Source: an uncultured Candidatus Berkelbacteria bacterium (GTDB lineage: Bacteria; Patescibacteriota; UBA1384; CAILIB01). From it: 64,000 nucleotides of DNA. Each line of letters starts with the position of its first letter. Position 1 is the stretch's first letter. This document shows positions 1,583 through 15,772 of the stretch, in pieces. The position numbers were made by a program, and so were the translations under genes. A model generated the notes under the pieces. It saw only the letters and a program-made list of their open reading frames with translations, searched no databases and had not been told where the DNA came from. The DNA is taken from the NCBI GenBank assembly GCA_903834195.1, contig CAILIB010000037.1:19-64018 (forward strand). The letters run 5' to 3'.

Positions 1583-2146
1583 CTACTTATTAGCTCGTTC
1601 TACGTAGGAATTTTCTTCAGTATTAACTCGGATGATATCGCCGATTTTCACGAAGAGAGGGACGGTAATAGTCGCTCCTGTCTCGAGAGTAGCAGGCTTG
1701 GAGCCGCCTTGAGCAGTGTCTCCTTTAACACCTGGTTCGGTGTGAGATACTTCAAACTCCATTTTGATTGGGAAAATAACGCTCACAGGTTTTTCTTCGT
1801 AGAAGATAATCTGGAACTCGCCGCCTTCTTTGAGGTAGCGTGATTTATCACCAACTTCTTCAGCTTTGAGGTTGAACTGTTCAAAACTGTTGTTGTCCAT
1901 GAACACATACTCGCTACCCTCTTGGTAGAGGTATTGGCACGAGTGACGTTCAAGACTCGCTTCTTCAAACTTGTCGCTTCCTTTGAACGTAATGTCGAAG
2001 AGTGCGCTGGTTTTGAGGTTACGAAGTTTGGTGCGCATTACGGCGCCGCCGCGACCCATCTTTGAGTGTTGGTAGCTGATAACAACGCAGGGATCACCTT
2101 CGTAAACGATGGTGGTGCCAGTTTTAAGATCAGTAATTCCCAACAT
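1583..2146 (-). CDS. efp: Translation elongation factor P
   Basis: 187 aa. N-terminal loop HSKMGRGGAVMRTKLRNL aligns with the EF-P KPGKG loop. Three-domain length. C-terminal VPLFVKIGDIIRVNT. Confidence 0.95.
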   Translation of the reverse strand: MLGITDLKTGTTIVYEGDPCVVISYQHSKMGRGGAVMRTKLRNLKTSALFDITFKGSDKFEEASLERHSCQYLYQEGSEYVFMDNNSFEQFNLKAEEVGDKSRYLKEGGEFQIIFYEEKPVSVIFPIKMEFEVSHTEPGVKGDTAQGGSKPATLETGATITVPLFVKIGDIIRVNTEENSYVERANK

Positions 2147-2148
2147 TC

Positions 2149-2394
2149 CTACTGCTTAACGAATGGGAGAAGGGCAAGAATACGTGCACGCTTGATAGCG
2201 GTTGCAATCATACGCTGAGTAACAGGTGCGTTACCAGAGCGCTTGCGTGATTCGATTTGACCGAATTCGTTGGTATAACGACGGATAAGTGCAAGGTTCT
2301 TGTGGTCGATTTCGAGAACCTGACGAGTAATGCTCGCGCGGCGTTTGCGCTGAACAGGGTACCCGCTTTTGGAAGGTTTGCGTGGTGCTGCCAT
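2149..2394 (-). CDS. rpsR: 30S ribosomal protein S18
   Basis: 81 aa with YKNLALIRRYTNEFGQI...RMIATAIKRARILALLPF. Sits in an rpsF-ssb-rpsR arrangement. Confidence 0.95.
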   Translation of the reverse strand: MAAPRKPSKSGYPVQRKRRASITRQVLEIDHKNLALIRRYTNEFGQIESRKRSGNAPVTQRMIATAIKRARILALLPFVKQ

Positions 2395-2403
2395 GTGGTT
2401 GGT

Positions 2404-2865
2404 TTAAAAAGGAATATCGTCGATGTTGATTTCGTCAGTCGGATTAACCGCTGGCGATGCTTTGCGTGCTGCTGGAGCTGACTGAGGCATTGAGCCCATG
2501 TCATCACCTGCACCTCCGCCGAGGTTTTTGTTTACAACATCAGGTCCGAGAATAGTATCAGCAACAATTTCTGTCTTGTACTTTTTCTGTCCGTCTGGTG
2601 CTTCCCAAGAGCGACTTTGGAGACGTCCGCTTACGAAAATGCGGTCGCCTTTGTGGAGGACTTGGTTGCAGCGTTCACCGAGGGCACCCCATACCACGAT
2701 GTCGTGGAATTCGGCTGGGGAATCTACCCAGTTACCTGCAGTATCCTTGTAGCGACGGTTAGTTGCTACTGCGAATGAGGTAACACTCTGGTTGTTCGGA
2801 GTCATGCGAAGCTCAGGATCTCGGGTAAGATTTCCGATAACTTCGATGCGGTTGAGGTTGATCAT
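2404..2865 (-). CDS. ssb: Single-stranded DNA-binding protein
   Basis: OB-fold N-terminus MINLNRIEVIGNLTRDPELR, a Gly-rich linker and the canonical acidic tail DDIPF. Confidence 0.95.
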   Translation of the reverse strand: MINLNRIEVIGNLTRDPELRMTPNNQSVTSFAVATNRRYKDTAGNWVDSPAEFHDIVVWGALGERCNQVLHKGDRIFVSGRLQSRSWEAPDGQKKYKTEIVADTILGPDVVNKNLGGGAGDDMGSMPQSAPAARKASPAVNPTDEINIDDIPF

Positions 2866-2889: not shown

Positions 2890-3417
2890 TTACTTGCTCT
2901 CTTCTTCCTTGAGGAGGTTGTCGAGCTGAGTATCGAGCTGAGCCAAGCGATCGGCTTCCGAAAGCTCTTCTAGATCTACTTCAATATCTTCGTGCTTTGC
3001 GGCGCGAGATGTTGTAGTACGACGAAGTTGCTCCTCAGCTGTTGCTGGTTCTTCACGATCTGAGCGACGGGTCTTCTTTTCTTCTTCAACAACAGGGTAG
3101 AGACTACCAGGTTGAGCTGAAGTGTACGCAATGGTTACCAGGGAACGGATGATGCTTTCGTCGAAACGTAGGTGGCGATCAAGGTTCTTAAGCTGGTCGG
3201 TTGGGAGTGAGAACCACATAGTAACGTACAAACCGCTACGGTTACGTGCGATTGGGTACGCGAGGTCACGACGACCCCATTGTTCGTCTTTGGTGTGAGT
3301 TCCGCCAAATTCGACGATTGCTTTTGTGATCTCGGCAGTTTTAGCTGTTGAGATCTCAGGAGTAGCAGTTTCTCCGAGGATGAACGTGAGCTCGTAGTTT
3401 TTTACAGGTGCTGACAT
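2890..3417 (-). CDS. rpsF: 30S ribosomal protein S6 with an acidic C-terminal extension
   Basis: N-terminus YELTFIL...WGRRDLAYPI is typical of S6. First gene of the rpsF-ssb-rpsR-efp string. Confidence 0.9.
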   Translation of the reverse strand: MSAPVKNYELTFILGETATPEISTAKTAEITKAIVEFGGTHTKDEQWGRRDLAYPIARNRSGLYVTMWFSLPTDQLKNLDRHLRFDESIIRSLVTIAYTSAQPGSLYPVVEEEKKTRRSDREEPATAEEQLRRTTTSRAAKHEDIEVDLEELSEADRLAQLDTQLDNLLKEEESK

Positions 3418-3540
3418 ATATATTTAGAAACGGACAACAAATAAAGTGGATTAGATAGCATCCACCAATGGCACTTCGCATAGTACCAGAAAGAGTAGCT
3501 TCCTGCAATTATCTGGTCAGGTAGTTTAGTACAAGGGGAT

Positions 3541-3548
3541 TGTATAAT
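3541..3548 (+). promoter_or_regulatory. Extended -10 promoter element (TGTATAAT)
   Basis: TG at 3541-3542 followed by consensus TATAAT at 3543-3548. No clear -35 box. Confidence 0.55.
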
Positions 3549-3554
3549 AGTGAA

Positions 3555-3677
3555 AAAGTGCTATCATCCTTTGGTGGTCCGGCGTATTCTCTTGGCGGAT
3601 CCATATCAACCTCCTGTTGAGGGGCCACTGCGGTGGCCTCTCAGCTGATCTTTCACTTGTACGCAGGTGATTTTTTT
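3555..3677 (+). ncRNA. Candidate small RNA 1 (~120 nt), identity unknown
   Basis: Starts after the extended -10. Contains a 10-bp hairpin gaggggccac-tgcg-gtggcctctc (3619-3642). Ends at an intrinsic terminator (3653-3677). No ORF. Confidence 0.45.
3653..3677 (+). terminator. Intrinsic terminator T1
   Basis: Stem tcacttg/caggtga (one G-U pair), loop tacg, then a T7 run at 3671-3677. Confidence 0.7.
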
Positions 3678-3941
3678 GTTACAAAACATACATCGGACGA
3701 CCACCTCTGATTCTGTGACCCCGACTGGATACCGCGACAAGCGCTCCTGCTGTGGATGTGTTAAGAACTATGTGGAGGGACGGCTGGCAGCCTACCTGAT
3801 ACTATCCCAAGAGTAAGTATATCGTACCGTATTCCGGAAGCAGCCTTGCTGACACTTCAAAACCTGTGTTTTTTCTAGGTTCACTAGAAATACCGGAATT
3901 CTATTTGCGGCTACTACCACCCCGGAGTGCCGCAATTTTTT
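3678..3941 (+). ncRNA. Candidate non-coding transcript 2 (read-through or independent), identity unknown
   Basis: 264 nt with no ORF longer than 10 codons. Ends at a terminator at 3905-3941. cggacgaccacc (3693-3707) is complementary to ggtggtccg (3573-3581). No promoter was identified. Confidence 0.3.
3905..3941 (+). terminator. Intrinsic terminator T2
   Basis: Stem ttgcggc/gccgcaa with a 17-nt loop, followed by a T6 run at 3936-3941. Confidence 0.6.
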
Positions 3942-3942
3942 A

Positions 3943-3971
3943 TTGCATGTGAAATTAGTTCTTGATATAAG
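3943..3971 (+). promoter_or_regulatory. Sigma70-like promoter TTGCAT-17 nt-(TGa)TATAAG
   Basis: -35 TTGCAT at 3943-3948, 17-nt spacer, TG at 3963-3964, -10 TATAAG at 3966-3971. Confidence 0.55.
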
Positions 3972-3977
3972 GGAAGG

Positions 3978-4252
3978 GATCGGTTCACACTCGTGTGATC
4001 CACTTACTCAATCAGGTACGAACTGAGCGAGCAGTGGTGATCCTGTCTTATTGGTTTGGCAGTGTATGTGTGGTGCAGTGTTTTAAGTAGGAGACTGCCG
4101 GGGAATCTGTTGGTGCATCAACTATTCCACGAAACCGTACTGAGGATGTGTACAAAACAGAAAGTGCTACGCGAAAGTATTGTGCGTGTACATTTTACCT
4201 GTTCATCCTTTGTTTCATTGGGCCCCCTCAGTGGTTGGGGGTCCTATTTTTT
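3978..4252 (+). ncRNA. Candidate structured RNA 3 (~275 nt), identity unknown
   Basis: Bounded by the promoter at 3943-3971 and the terminator at 4220-4252. Has internal stems (ggcagt 4058-4063 with actgcc; tcaca-ctcg-tgtga). ORFs in the track here have no promoter or RBS support. Confidence 0.4.
4220..4252 (+). terminator. Intrinsic terminator T3
   Basis: 8-bp stem gggccccc/gggggtcc (one G-U pair), 9-nt loop, then tatttttt. Confidence 0.75.
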
Positions 4253-4283
4253 ATGCTTAAACCTGATAATTGCACTATATACC

Positions 4284-4312
4284 TTGACAAAATGCTTGAT
4301 TTGACGTATACT
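4284..4312 (+). promoter_or_regulatory. Near-consensus sigma70 promoter TTGACA-17 nt-TATACT
   Basis: -35 TTGACA at 4284-4289, exact 17-nt spacer, -10 TATACT at 4307-4312. Lies 24 nt upstream of the ATG at 4337. Confidence 0.75.
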
Positions 4313-4336
4313 CATGTAATTTCAAAAAACAAATAT

Positions 4337-4501
4337 ATGAAAAAAACGTCAAAAACTCAAAAAGAAGTAAATCAAGTTGAAGAGCTCAATGAGCAGCGAC
4401 TTGCCTACATTGCTCGAATTAAAATGGAAGTTGGCCAGCCGGTAGATAATATCGGACATCCAGAACCATTCATTCCGCAACTACACCGCGTTACTGCCTA
4501 A
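4337..4501 (+). CDS. Hypothetical small protein (54 aa)
   Basis: Internal ATG of track ORF 4148-4501. Preceded by the consensus promoter and followed by a terminator. Sequence MKKTSKTQKEVNQVEELNEQRLAYIARIK...; no known motif and no SD. Confidence 0.45.
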   Translation: MKKTSKTQKEVNQVEELNEQRLAYIARIKMEVGQPVDNIGHPEPFIPQLHRVTA

Positions 4502-4510
4502 GTAACAGAG

Positions 4511-4539
4511 AAAATACCCCTTACTCAGGGGTATTTTTG
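4511..4539. terminator. Bidirectional intrinsic terminator shared by the small ORF and the recombinase gene
   Basis: Stem atacccct/aggggtat, loop tactc, A-run 5' and T-run 3'. Overlaps the recombinase stop codon (4521-4523). Confidence 0.8.
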
Positions 4540-5483
4540 TGTTCAATTTCCTCAAGTTTCTTACCATGGAAGCGCTCGTGTACTTCATGTAGTTGCTGGT
4601 TGGTGATGTGGGTGTAGATTTGGGTGGTTGTAATAGAAGCGTGGCCAAGTAGGGTTTGCACAGAGCGAATATCAGCACCGTTTAATAGAAGGTCAGTAGC
4701 AAATGAGTGGCGCAAGCTATGGGGAGTAATATTTTTCACAATTCCGGCGGCTCCACTGTGTTTTTGAATAATACGGTCTACTGAGCGGGGAGTGAGGCGA
4801 CTGGCCTGCAATTGGACTTTAGGGGATGGATCATCACCAACACCTTTACCGCGGTAGCCAACAAAGGCTGCGTCGTTTTCATCAACGCGGCGAGAAAAGT
4901 ACTTGTCGAGCCATTCTTTGGCACGCTCAGAAATAAACACAATCCGCTCTTTGCGACCTTTACCAACTACGCGCATTTCACCAGTGTTCGTATTGAGCAT
5001 GCGTTTATCAAGAGAGGCAAGTTCACTAACCCGTAGACCGGTAGAGAAGAGGAGCTCAATAATTGCACGATCGCGCAAACCCGTCATTGTGCTGGTATCG
5101 GGTTGTTGGAGGATATTCTCGAGTTCTTCCGGGGTGAGGTAGGATAACTCGCGGGGTTCAAGTTTGGGAAGTTCAATCTGATCTGGAGATAGGCACGGAA
5201 TGCCACGTTTAACGATATATCGGAAAAGGGAACGAAGACCGATTACATAATAGGTCTGCGTTTTTAACGTCAGCGGTTCGTTATAACCGTCTAGATAGGT
5301 ATATAGGTAGACACGATACTTGCGAATTTGTTCGGCAGTAATATCGCCGACTTCAATATCTTTTTTGAGCCACTGGGCAAAACGCTCCAAATAAAAGCGA
5401 TAGGCGACAATTGTCCGCGGTGAGCGGTTCTTTTCGACCTGGAGGTGTTCCAAAAAGTCGTTAGTAGCTGTGGAGAGTAACAT
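4521..5483 (-). CDS. Tyrosine site-specific recombinase (XerC/XerD-like)
   Basis: N-terminal SAM-like FLEHLQVEKNRSPRTIVAYRFYL. Catalytic C-terminus GLRVSEL...HSLRHSFATDLL...LLGHASITTTQIYTHI (R..HxxR..Y). Start set at Met46 of the track ORF, which has a -10 box 6 nt upstream; 5507 is an alternative start. Confidence 0.9.
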   Translation of the reverse strand: MLLSTATNDFLEHLQVEKNRSPRTIVAYRFYLERFAQWLKKDIEVGDITAEQIRKYRVYLYTYLDGYNEPLTLKTQTYYVIGLRSLFRYIVKRGIPCLSPDQIELPKLEPRELSYLTPEELENILQQPDTSTMTGLRDRAIIELLFSTGLRVSELASLDKRMLNTNTGEMRVVGKGRKERIVFISERAKEWLDKYFSRRVDENDAAFVGYRGKGVGDDPSPKVQLQASRLTPRSVDRIIQKHSGAAGIVKNITPHSLRHSFATDLLLNGADIRSVQTLLGHASITTTQIYTHITNQQLHEVHERFHGKKLEEIEHKNTPE

Positions 5484-5489
5484 GTGTCC

Positions 5490-5499
5490 ATGATACACT
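5490..5499. promoter_or_regulatory. Overlapping divergent -10 boxes for the recombinase (minus) and PAP2 (plus) genes
   Basis: Plus strand: TGaTACACT (5491-5499), 6 nt before ATG 5506. Minus strand: TATCAT (reverse complement of 5490-5495), 6 nt before the ATG at 5483. Confidence 0.5.
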
Positions 5500-5505
5500 A
5501 GAGCC

Positions 5506-6069
5506 ATGATTGCTGCAGTACAAAATCTCGACTTCTCGATTGTGAACACGTTGTCTACATATACAGTGACCCATACCTGGGCCAGTGTTTTAGTGTATGT
5601 TTGTGCTGAAATGCTCATTGCAGTGCCATTTTTAACCTTGGCATTGATGTGGTTTCAACCTGGTCGGTTTACCACCTATAGACCAATTCGCAAGGCAGTA
5701 GTAATGACGATTATGGCACTTACGGTGGCATTGGCGTTAAAGTCGTTGATTGCCTTTCTGATATCGCGGGATCGGCCATTTATTTCACACCCAGACATGC
5801 TATATCTACCATTTAAAGTAGATAGCTCTAGTTTTCCTTCTGGACATACAATCTTGGCCTTTACCATGGCCTTTAGTTTGCTTTGGTCAAAGTTTCAACG
5901 CACTGGAACTACTTTTTTGCTTATAGCGTGTATAGTAGCTTTTGCACGGGTTGCTGCGGGTGTACACTATCCTACTGATATTCTCGGAGGGATTGTTGTA
6001 GCCTTTATTGCAACTTGGTTTGTGTTTCGAGAGGCTAGTGGGGTGAGAGAGTACCTTCCTAATAAGTAG
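5506..6069 (+). CDS. PAP2-family membrane phosphatase (undecaprenyl-diphosphatase-like)
   Basis: Three PAP2 motifs: K..ISRDRPF, FPSGHT, ARVAAGVHYPTD. Multiple transmembrane segments. Confidence 0.85.
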   Translation: MIAAVQNLDFSIVNTLSTYTVTHTWASVLVYVCAEMLIAVPFLTLALMWFQPGRFTTYRPIRKAVVMTIMALTVALALKSLIAFLISRDRPFISHPDMLYLPFKVDSSSFPSGHTILAFTMAFSLLWSKFQRTGTTFLLIACIVAFARVAAGVHYPTDILGGIVVAFIATWFVFREASGVREYLPNK

Positions 6070-13194: not shown

Positions 13195-14751
13195 ATGCGT
13201 GAACGTCCGTTCTATATTACAACTGCTATTGCATACCCCAATGCTCGCCCACACATGGGTACGGCTTTGGAGTGGGTACAAGCTGATGTGATTGCACGGT
13301 ACATGCGCCTGTTTGCAGGGGTGCCAGTGCGGTTTCAGACTGGTATAGATGAACATGGCTTAAAGATTGCTCGGTCGGCGGAAGCAGCTGGAATGGCTCC
13401 CGCAGAGTTTGTCGATGGTCAGTTGCAACACTTTACCTCGTTGGCCGATGGTTTATCAATTTCAGCCGATCGCTTCATTCGGACAAGTGAAAAAGCCCAT
13501 ATTGAAATGGCGCAAGCCCTGTGGAATGCCTGTGCATCGAAGGGCGATATATATAAGAAAACCTACCGCGCTTGGTATGACGTAAAGGAAGAAGAGTTTC
13601 TTGGCCTTGCCGATGAGATACAAGACCCTTCGGTTTTTGGAGTTGACCCAAAGTTTTTGGAACTGATAGAAGAAGAGAATTACTTTTTTGCAGCGTCGAA
13701 ATACCAAGAGAAAGTGTTAGAAGTATTAAAGAAAGATGAGTACGAAGTTATACCTCGTAATCGTCGTTTAGAGCTTGTGACCTTCATTGAAGAGAAGGGA
13801 CTTCAGGATGTCTCAATTTCCCGAGATTCGAGTAAGTTGTCCTGGGGTGTGCCTGTGCCTGGAGATGAATCTCAAGTAATGTATGTTTGGTTTGATGCGC
13901 TGACAAACTATCTAACTGGTGCAGCATCAGTGGTTGATGGCCAGATTAAACCTAGTGAATTTTGGCCAGCTGCACTCCATGTTGTTGGAAAAGATATTAG
14001 TAGGTTTCATGGGGTACTTTGGACTGCAATGTTACTTTCTGCTGAAATTGCTTTACCTGAAAAGTTACTCGTCCATGGGTTCATTTTAAGTGGTGGACGT
14101 AAAATGAGTAAGTCGCTGGGGAATATTATTGATCCACAGGATTTCCTTGCTCAGTATGGGGTGGAGCCACTGCGATGGTATCTGACACATGCAGTTCCAA
14201 CTTTAAATGACGGCGATTTTACCGATGAACGTTTCCGTCAGGTCTACACAAGTAACCTAGTAAATGATTTTGGCAACCTAGTGAGTAGAGTTGTAAGCAT
14301 GGCGCATAAGTATTGTGATGGTCGCGTGCCGATGGTTTCTGCAGAGCAGGTAGATAATCTCGAGAAAGTGATCGTAGAAGAAAAGTGGCGAGAATATCAC
14401 GCTGCAATGTATACGCTTGAGTTAAGTGGTGCGACTACAGCAGCTCATGAGTTGATGGTTTTCTGTAATCGACGAATAGATGAATTAAAGCCATGGATTT
14501 TGGCAAAAGATGAGTTTAAACGAACAGAATTAGAGGAATTATTATATGAACTTCTGGAAGTTATTCGTCATATTGCTGTGATGTTGCAGCCTGTGTTACC
14601 AGGTACTTCAGCAAAAATTGCAGTAGAAGTATTCCCAGACCTAGATGCAGCCTTTTGGCAGAATGGTACCCAAGGTTCAGCCTGGGGTGCACTAGAGCCA
14701 GGAAGCTTGCTTGGACCATCTCCTATGTTATTTCCTCGATTAGAATCATGA
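13195..14751 (+). CDS. metG: Methionine--tRNA ligase (short form)
   Basis: Class I HIGH-region variant YPNARPHMGTA, WGVPVP, and KMSKS (GRKMSKSLGN). Confidence 0.95.
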   Translation: MRERPFYITTAIAYPNARPHMGTALEWVQADVIARYMRLFAGVPVRFQTGIDEHGLKIARSAEAAGMAPAEFVDGQLQHFTSLADGLSISADRFIRTSEKAHIEMAQALWNACASKGDIYKKTYRAWYDVKEEEFLGLADEIQDPSVFGVDPKFLELIEEENYFFAASKYQEKVLEVLKKDEYEVIPRNRRLELVTFIEEKGLQDVSISRDSSKLSWGVPVPGDESQVMYVWFDALTNYLTGAASVVDGQIKPSEFWPAALHVVGKDISRFHGVLWTAMLLSAEIALPEKLLVHGFILSGGRKMSKSLGNIIDPQDFLAQYGVEPLRWYLTHAVPTLNDGDFTDERFRQVYTSNLVNDFGNLVSRVVSMAHKYCDGRVPMVSAEQVDNLEKVIVEEKWREYHAAMYTLELSGATTAAHELMVFCNRRIDELKPWILAKDEFKRTELEELLYELLEVIRHIAVMLQPVLPGTSAKIAVEVFPDLDAAFWQNGTQGSAWGALEPGSLLGPSPMLFPRLES

Positions 14752-15536
14752 TTGATACACATTGTCATTTAAACTTTTCACCAATGGTGGAGGATGTTCC
14801 TTCAGTTCTTCAGCGTGCTTGGGCGGCTGGAGTAACTGGAATTGTAATTCCAGGAACTGACTCAGACAGCTCTTTTTCGGCAGTTAATATAGCTCGGTTA
14901 TTTCCAGGTGTATATCCAGCTGTGGGTATTCACCCAAGTGAAGTTGAAAAATTAGGTGAGGATGCCGATGCTGAAATCCGTGAACTAGCTGAACTATCGA
15001 CCGTCGTTGCAATTGGTGAAGTTGGACTAGACTATCACTACTTTGAAGGGCTGGATGCGGCTGGGATAGAGCGGGTGAAATTTGCACAGAAGGCATTATT
15101 CACTGATATGATTCAAATTGCACAAGAAGTGCAGAAGCCTCTGATTATTCACAGTAGGGATTGCTTCGAGGATATTTACGAGCACATGGCTGCTCAAGTT
15201 CCAAATCATCCAGCTGTTATTCACTGTTTTACAGGTTCAATAGAAGAAGCTAAACAATGGCTTGAGTTGGGGTATCTACTTTCTTTCACTGGAGTTATTA
15301 CCTACAAAAAGAACGAAGCGTTGCGAGAAATTGTTAAGCATGTTCCAATTGAGCAAATGATGATTGAAACCGATGCTCCGTATTTGGCTCCAGAAGGCTT
15401 TCGTAAAGAAAGTTGTGAACCAAAGTTTGTACGAAATGTGGCCGAGTGTGTAGCAGAGGTTAAGGGTGTTTCACTTGAAGAAGTTATTGATATTACTACT
15501 GAAACTGCAACAAGTTTCTTTAATATTGCACTATGA
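14748..15536 (+). CDS. tatD: TatD-family metal-dependent hydrolase/DNase
   Basis: MIDTHCHLNF start and IGEVGLDYH, HSR, ETDAPYL motifs. Start reset to the ATG at 14748, which overlaps the metG stop (ATGA). Confidence 0.9.
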   Translation: MIDTHCHLNFSPMVEDVPSVLQRAWAAGVTGIVIPGTDSDSSFSAVNIARLFPGVYPAVGIHPSEVEKLGEDADAEIRELAELSTVVAIGEVGLDYHYFEGLDAAGIERVKFAQKALFTDMIQIAQEVQKPLIIHSRDCFEDIYEHMAAQVPNHPAVIHCFTGSIEEAKQWLELGYLLSFTGVITYKKNEALREIVKHVPIEQMMIETDAPYLAPEGFRKESCEPKFVRNVAECVAEVKGVSLEEVIDITTETATSFFNIAL

Positions 15537-15772
15537 TCCGAGTAAAGCCTGAAGGTGTAATTGAATGGATTGGAGCATTGCTTGTATTGCTCGCTTTTAC
15601 CCTTTTAACAGCTGAAGTGTGGTCAGCACACCAGTGGCCATATCTAGTGAGTAATGTAGTCGGATCAATCTGTATTGCATATGGTGCATTTAAAAAGAAA
15701 GACATTCCGCCAGTTGCGCTCAATATAATTTGGCTATTAGTTGCGCTTATTGGTTTGCTTAAACTGATCTAA
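15533..15772 (+). CDS. Small membrane protein (2-3 TM), unknown function
   Basis: 79 aa and hydrophobic. Translationally coupled on both sides (4-nt and 1-nt overlaps). Confidence 0.5.
   Translation: MIRVKPEGVIEWIGALLVLLAFTLLTAEVWSAHQWPYLVSNVVGSICIAYGAFKKKDIPPVALNIIWLLVALIGLLKLI

Follow-up and report, generated by a model that had tools for sequence, protein, structure and literature searches.

What occupies the 1103 bases that separate rpsF from the gene for a Xer-type tyrosine recombinase in the 64-kb stretch of DNA analysed here (hereafter the window, from an uncultured soil or rhizosphere bacterium whose best named relative, judged by ribosomal protein S6, is a Candidatus Berkelbacteria metagenome-assembled genome at 56% identity)? 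The original prediction for this locus described an island of about 1.1 kb between these two minus-strand genes that was poor in open reading frames (ORFs) and carried three promoter- and terminator-bounded units with strong stems on the plus strand. The gap also holds a 54-aa small ORF, and positions 3418–3510 are the conserved promoter and leader of rpsF, which that prediction had overlooked; once the conserved flanks are subtracted, the island proper covers about 750 bases at approximately 3510–4260, and this part is indeed free of ORFs. Our preferred reading, to which we give a probability of about 0.45, is that 3510–4260 is lineage-specific non-coding cargo in a variable slot, likely to be transcribed from the plus strand into two to three short, terminator-ended candidate RNAs. 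The evolutionary part of this reading, that lineage-specific non-coding cargo sits in a slot which turns over between genomes, is well supported, and we infer from the sequence the functional part, i.e. that the candidate RNAs are made, where they start and whether they have any role. What we observe directly at the locus is an absence of coding capacity, terminators that follow no gene, folding that favours one strand, a slot whose content varies between relatives, and no member of a known RNA family.

The island is the only ORF-free stretch of more than 500 bp in the window (an apparent second ORF-poor gap at 14752–15771 proved to be occupied by a 293-aa ORF at 14655–15536 and a 79-aa ORF). 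A codon-usage log-odds profile, trained on 50 window genes and read in six frames as bits per 120 nt, stayed near or below zero across the island and gave no coding signal; it peaked at 8.7 bits at position 3520, on the left edge, and at 7.9 bits within the predicted units (4030–4110), true genes scoring 13.1 ± 6.0. The longest stop-free stretch, at 78 codons, is no longer than expected by chance, and the six-frame translation of 3505–4275 had no match at E ≤ 10 among 5.8 billion proteins. The G+C content of the island is 0.46, which is the level of coding DNA and not the A+T-rich level of true spacers.

Twelve related loci were retrieved via the S6 protein and compared with positions 3418–4340 of the window using blastn and nhmmer. 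The order PAP2, Xer, small ORF and rpsF–ssb–rpsR–efp is maintained in these relatives, and DNA similarity to the compared interval is limited to 3434–3495 (84–88%) and to the promoter and 5′ untranslated region (UTR) of the small ORF. Between these two conserved parts the slot holds the following content (percentages are S6 identities, the closest non-identical S6 proteins being at 77%, 72% and 71%, with none closer in the collections searched):

L010 (77%): 285 nt, non-coding
L011 (72%): about 210 nt, non-coding
L012 and L013 (71%): a 232-aa ORF
L006: a 223-aa ORF
L017: a 124-aa ORF
L018 and L019: a 156-aa ORF and a 234-aa pilin-like ORF
L020, L005, L004 and L001: little or nothing

The inserts are unrelated to each other and to the island at both the DNA and protein level (in tblastn comparisons, none of the slot cargo proteins of L001, L006, L011, L012, L017 and L018 matched the island), and as they differ in every locus we conclude that the island occupies a hypervariable slot. 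Where cargo is present, it always has the orientation of the small ORF. A plus-oriented terminator is found shortly ahead of the small-ORF promoter in L010, L011 and L012, and also upstream of it in L017, and the L010 insert folds better on the plus strand (z = −3.4 versus −2.15); transcription of the plus strand across the slot looks like a common theme among the relatives. A possible homology between the L010 insert and the third unit of the island was rejected, with the local alignment score falling under the shuffle mean.

Variability extends to the adjacent Xer–small-ORF junction, where L011 carries a PIN-domain gene together with a small partner ORF, plus an ORF of 198 aa (1457–2711 of that locus), and L001 a 225-aa ORF (2990–3667). 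The close relatives L017 and L005 form a pair of occupied and empty sites, in which TTTTAA(T/C)CTG(A/G)T flanks the L017 cargo on each side and occurs as a single copy in L005. We considered from the L017/L005 comparison that the small-ORF promoter might have been duplicated at the left end of the island (GGGGATTG, 3535–3542), and rejected this since a promoter profile finds one genuine promoter per locus.

Each motif named in the original prediction was found at the position given for it, and the three intrinsic terminators it described at 3653–3677, 3905–3941 and 4220–4252 are real, each being a hairpin (3653–3670, 3905–3935 and 4220–4244, respectively) followed by a T-run. Plus-strand terminators number three to four in 3510–4260, which is about ten times the chance expectation, and terminator-like sites are enriched in the wider interval 3300–4700 (five, versus 1.1 ± 1.1 in shuffled sequences). 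No ORF ends upstream of any of these three terminators, and we regard them as orphans because the other strong plus-strand terminators of the window, in our own scan of its whole length, mostly trail the stop codon of a protein gene by no more than about 40 nt. The 10-bp helix predicted at 3619–3642 is also borne out and lies within a perfect 13-bp helix at 3616–3645. The terminators divide the island into three units, as listed here together with one small ORF inside the third:

3543–3677, plus strand: unit 1, with TATAAT at 3543–3548, a hairpin at 3574–3604, the helix at 3616–3645, and a hairpin at 3653–3670 followed by seven T residues
3678–3943, plus strand: unit 2, unstructured in its 5′ two-thirds, with a four-way junction at 3831–3899, the terminator hairpin at 3905–3935 and a T-run
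3943–4252, plus strand: unit 3, with a promoter-like sequence at 3943–3971, about 240 unremarkable nucleotides, the terminator at 4220–4244 and a T-run
3995–4090, plus strand: a 31-codon ORF with a GTG start (MIHLLNQVRTERAVVILSYWFGSVCVVQCFK) and a hydrophobic tail, inside unit 3 and unsupported

Only two short sub-regions, 3550–3700 and 3826–3946, fold better than shuffled sequences. In a sliding 100-nt scan the first hot spot (3550–3700) reached z = −5.3 on the plus strand and −2.8 on the minus strand, and the second (3800–3950) reached −3.9 on the plus strand, with the minus strand weaker. Fold z-scores for unit 1 are about −3.4 to −4.9 (−3.4 for the whole unit), and 3826–3946 has z = −5.0 and a minimum free energy structure that equals the centroid, with the four-way junction followed by the terminator. 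Pattern scans of viral contigs returned two chance hairpin matches only.

Taken together, the intact and enriched orphan terminators on the plus strand and the strand-biased structure suggest that two to three short terminator-ended RNAs are produced. The slot lies between two conserved divergent promoters, one driving rpsF–ssb–rpsR–efp on the minus strand and the other the 54-aa small ORF on the plus strand. An RNA of approximately 120 nt might stretch from the TATAAT (3543) through the tandem hairpins (3616–3677), a further transcript would end in the structured module at 3826–3941, and an RNA of approximately 275 nt might extend from the promoter-like sequence at 3943–3971 to 4252. The last terminator (4220–4252) would shield the small-ORF promoter from upstream transcription.

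The genes and signals that surround the island are as follows:

1583–2146, minus strand: efp
2149–2394, minus strand: rpsR
2404–2865, minus strand: ssb
2890–3417, minus strand: rpsF
3418–3510, minus strand: rpsF promoter and 5′ leader, a conserved flank outside the island
3508–3503 and 3485–3480, minus strand: rpsF promoter, with −35 TTGCAG, a 17-nt spacer and −10 TACTAT, respectively
3466–3445, minus strand: rpsF leader hairpin, preceded by a CCAUUGG motif
3504–3517: left arm of an inverted repeat (TGCAATTATCTGGT), overlapping the rpsF −35
4261–4274: right arm of the inverted repeat (ACCTGATAATTGCA), 10 nt upstream of the small-ORF −35
4284–4312, plus strand: small-ORF promoter TTGACA-17-TATACT, followed by a 24-nt 5′ UTR
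4337–4501, plus strand: 54-aa small ORF, inside the rpsF–Xer gap and kept in relatives
4511–4537: bidirectional terminator common to the small ORF and Xer
4521–5483, minus strand: Xer-type tyrosine recombinase gene, with the gene for a PAP2 protein and then a UvrD helicase beyond

The small-ORF promoter is the top promoter match within the first 20 kb of the window, and its conservation, which includes the spacer and the 5′ UTR (GATTGACAAAAnGGTCnnTTTGGCGTATACTnATnTAATTTC), suggests a bound regulator or a role at the RNA level. The small ORF itself has no Pfam or NCBIfam match and is retained between Xer and rpsF in those relatives with a readable junction. On the other side of the slot, the rpsF promoter and leader show 84–88% identity over 45–60 nt in L010, L011, L012 and L013, and the CCAATGG of the leader was found in all relatives. 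An rpsF 5′ leader is known to be bound by the S6:S18 complex (PMC3895269), and by analogy the leader described here may be a form of it: 3418–3480 is likewise a conserved leader with a hairpin that immediately precedes rpsF, the operon includes rpsR as well, and the leader has a conserved CC beside the stem, but in contrast to the known leader it has no Rfam match at E ≤ 10 and its bulged double-C is putative only. A gapped alignment also links the rpsF promoter and leader in the sense direction (3418–3510, minus strand) weakly to 4005–4090 (plus strand) of unit 3, with a score of 38 that was reached by six of 500 shuffles and one of 154 real-sequence controls (p of about 0.01). Chance could explain this, as could a partial inverted duplication, and the similarity is unconvincing after multiple looks.

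A number of findings weigh against the production of short RNAs from the island. As to the start points, TGTATAAT at 3541–3548, predicted to be an extended −10, includes a perfect TATAAT (3543–3548) but has no usable −35, and it is not a TGnTATAAT because the TG directly abuts the hexamer; the TTGCAT-17-TGaTATAAG motif at 3943–3971 is placed as predicted but its −10 is without the final T; and neither of them passes as a promoter in the prediction tool. For unit 2 (3678–3943) a promoter was looked for and none was found, and promoter-like sites are not enriched in 3300–4700 (three, versus 2.5 ± 1.8 in shuffles). Of the three promoter- and terminator-bounded units originally proposed, then, the terminators stand, while unit 2 has no promoter and the others have sub-consensus ones. 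As whole units, units 2 and 3 fold no better than shuffles (z = −0.7 and −1.5, respectively), and a covariance model of 3826–3946 found no second copy in the window or in the fetched relatives. The island is also known from a single genome only, as the one identical locus (L014, an ENA soil metagenome contig) is a 100% match, and there is no conservation at the DNA level within 3510–4260 in any fetched relative. With no homologue among the relatives there can be no covariation, and no sign of selection beyond the intact helices. A comparison of syntenic loci had been proposed as a check, with a lack of conservation even among close relatives named as telling against the units, and within the limits of the data such a lack is what we found, with an unrelated 285-nt insert in the nearest relative (S6 identity of 77%).

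How else might the island be explained? The main rival, which we regard as doubtful, is that it derives from one or several plus-strand cargo genes that have since decayed, and that the terminators are functionless leftovers. This would fit the coding-like G+C of the island and the unrelated plus-strand ORFs of 124–234 aa that occupy the slot in relatives (L012, L006, L017 and L018), with a terminator standing between the cargo ORF and the small-ORF promoter in L012 and L017; and as the cargo ORFs of the relatives resemble neither each other nor any family and have no detectable kin, a missing homologue is to be expected of a dead one. Against this, our test for a pseudogene recovered neither residual protein similarity in six frames nor residual codon bias, with the longest open frame at chance level. 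The three or four terminators are only 260–310 nt apart, a spacing that leaves too little room for genes as large as those of the relatives, and the helices are intact (13/13 and 8/8 base pairs) although every reading frame has been lost, which argues against equal neutral decay of a gene and its terminator. A decayed copy of the small-ORF unit was considered separately, and the family hidden Markov model and blastn gave no match for this in the island. It is improbable that the island instead codes for very small proteins (one or several), such as a hydrophobic 31-aa peptide at 3995–4090 that would resemble a type I toxin. The ORF MIHLLNQVRTERAVVILSYWFGSVCVVQCFK does lie downstream of the promoter-like 3943–3971 and overlaps the one place within the units where the codon signal is weakly positive (7–8 bits at 4030–4110), and as the organism is mostly without Shine-Dalgarno sites, their absence is no argument against it. 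However, that signal falls in the lower tail of genes and within the noise of 120-nt windows, the GTG start is buried in a predicted hairpin, the ORF has no homologue, no leaderless ORF of at least 25 aa follows a −10 box in the island, and no antisense partner was identified. The suggestion that the island is a divergent housekeeping RNA, tRNA or oriC is hardly credible, for all that the size of the ORF-free stretch, in so compact a genome, and the cloverleaf-shaped fold at 3831–3899 might bring it to mind. An Rfam scan of the whole 64 kb at gathering scores found a tRNA-Leu only, a scan of 3350–4600 at E ≤ 10 gave just unrelated sub-threshold matches of 15–18 bits, and ARAGORN found neither a tRNA nor a transfer-messenger RNA (tmRNA) in the island region; these results agree with the earlier failure to see hallmarks of tmRNA, RNase P RNA or signal recognition particle (SRP) RNA by eye, and we reject tmRNA, RNase P RNA, SRP RNA and 6S RNA as identities for the island. 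The fold at 3831–3899 has the four arms of a tRNA but a D loop of 4 nt, an anticodon loop of 10 nt and a T stem of 7 bp with a 5-nt loop, and was also rejected. Internal terminators interrupt the stretch, the island is missing from the same place in all relatives, no DnaA box with up to one mismatch was found in 3400–4560, and the cumulative GC skew climbs monotonically with no turn at the island.

The remaining alternatives involve recombination. It is quite improbable that the island is a recombinase-delimited module that is either invertible, as a phase-variation switch, or exchangeable via the neighbouring Xer (fimS is an invertible promoter switch). In its favour are the 14-nt inverted repeat arms TGCAATTATCTGGT and ACCTGATAATTGCA, which are 13/14 complementary and are placed exactly where similarity to the relatives ends on both sides, such that deletion of 3518–4260 would leave a 28-bp palindrome; a tyrosine recombinase gene that ends 250 nt away, which together with the repeats gives the combination of inverted repeats and nearby recombinase gene looked for in invertons; and the different slot cargo of each relative. 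Yet an inverted repeat this good occurs in 7–9% of random or real 1161-nt chunks, and both arms are partly ancestral flank, with TGCAA belonging to the rpsF −35 and AAACCTG recurring upstream of the small-ORF promoter in relatives. There is no dif-like 11-6-11 core at either boundary (the best palindromes there are 7/11 and 6/11, which is background level), the slot cargo of the relatives has no comparable bounding repeats, no outward-facing promoter was found (only a 9/12 match on the minus strand at 3567–3539), and the contig assembles through the island unbroken. The Xer protein has full-length matches to the XerD and XerC models (255 and 242 bits, under the equivalog cut-offs) and is encoded at the same position in every relative regardless of the content of the slot, which identifies it as a resident chromosomal recombinase and not the integrase of an inserted element. 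Its adjacency had led to the suggestion that the island is the remnant of an integrated element, and this fails on the synteny and XerD/XerC-like character of Xer as well as on the absence of att-like direct repeats flanking 3420–5620, where there are just 13–15-nt chance repeats inside coding regions. No tandem repeats were found at the region, and phage and plasmid collections searched in distant mode had no match to the island. A miniature inverted-repeat transposable element or other non-autonomous insertion sequence was rejected, with no flanking duplication and no second copy of an arm or of the body in the 64 kb (the left-arm sequence has no other copy in the window). The more ambitious proposal, that the island is one state of a cassette slot in which Xer inverts or exchanges modules at the 14-nt repeats and so produces the unrelated cargo of the relatives, is very improbable; if true, it would give an uncultured lineage with kinship to the candidate phyla radiation a chromosomal counterpart of the Acinetobacter dif modules. 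The Xer-dependent dif modules of Acinetobacter plasmids (PMC6449649, PMC13141974) are similarly inverted-repeat-bounded segments beside a Xer-type gene with cargo that varies between genomes, but the repeats of the island are only 14 nt and have no 11-6-11 two-arm core, their arms are partly ancestral promoter, Xer is a conserved chromosomal copy, and the assembly shows one orientation and no empty site. Some recombination-based origin of the island is possible, because the slot is a hot spot for unrelated cargo and the island is bounded by the 14-nt inverted repeat.

Non-coding slot cargo with short terminator-ended RNAs, the reading we prefer, has parallels in two kinds of known system. Orphan bacterial small RNA (sRNA) genes, which lie in intergenic regions and end at Rho-independent terminators, are, like the island, ORF-free, with a sigma-70-like −10 or −35 and a G+C-rich hairpin and U-run 120–300 nt further on, strand-biased folding, and no conservation beyond a narrow lineage; the island differs from them in having weak or missing promoters and three units head to tail in one slot, and in being known from sequence only, without a homologue in the fetched loci. 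Flexible genomic islets share with the slot their conserved flanks and gene order and a content that is unrelated from relative to relative, here including a pilin-like gene, and the toxin–antitoxin pair in the adjacent Xer–small-ORF junction of L011 is of the same kind. In contrast to these islets the island cargo is non-coding, and neither a mobility gene nor an att site nor a duplicated target site was found. As candidate RNAs of an orphan, intergenic type within a flexible islet, the putative units would be a fresh instance of a familiar kind. If real, the short RNAs would join a very small set of candidate regulatory RNAs from small-genome uncultured bacteria of this kind, although for RNAs limited to one genome and with no predicted target the gain would be mainly one of annotation. 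As the junction between the rpsF and small-ORF promoters turns over fully while both promoters stay fixed, it provides a convenient natural marker for studying the entry of accessory DNA into reduced genomes.

Two further features of the window deserve mention. A second ORF-free stretch at 1–297, cut by the edge of the window, has an exact 40-nt direct repeat (GACGTGCTCTGCACGTCTGCTCACCCTCCCATAAAGAATA) at 1–40 and 208–247, with each copy followed by a long perfect palindromic hairpin (38–74 and 245–279), and this repeat and hairpin stretch had no Rfam match above threshold. Across the whole window a Shine-Dalgarno-like match of even 4 nt precedes the start of only 11 of the 51 genes, and many genes have a −10 box (TATACT, TACAAT or TATAGT) ending 6–7 nt before the ATG, a combination which suggests that leaderless mRNAs may be widespread in this organism.

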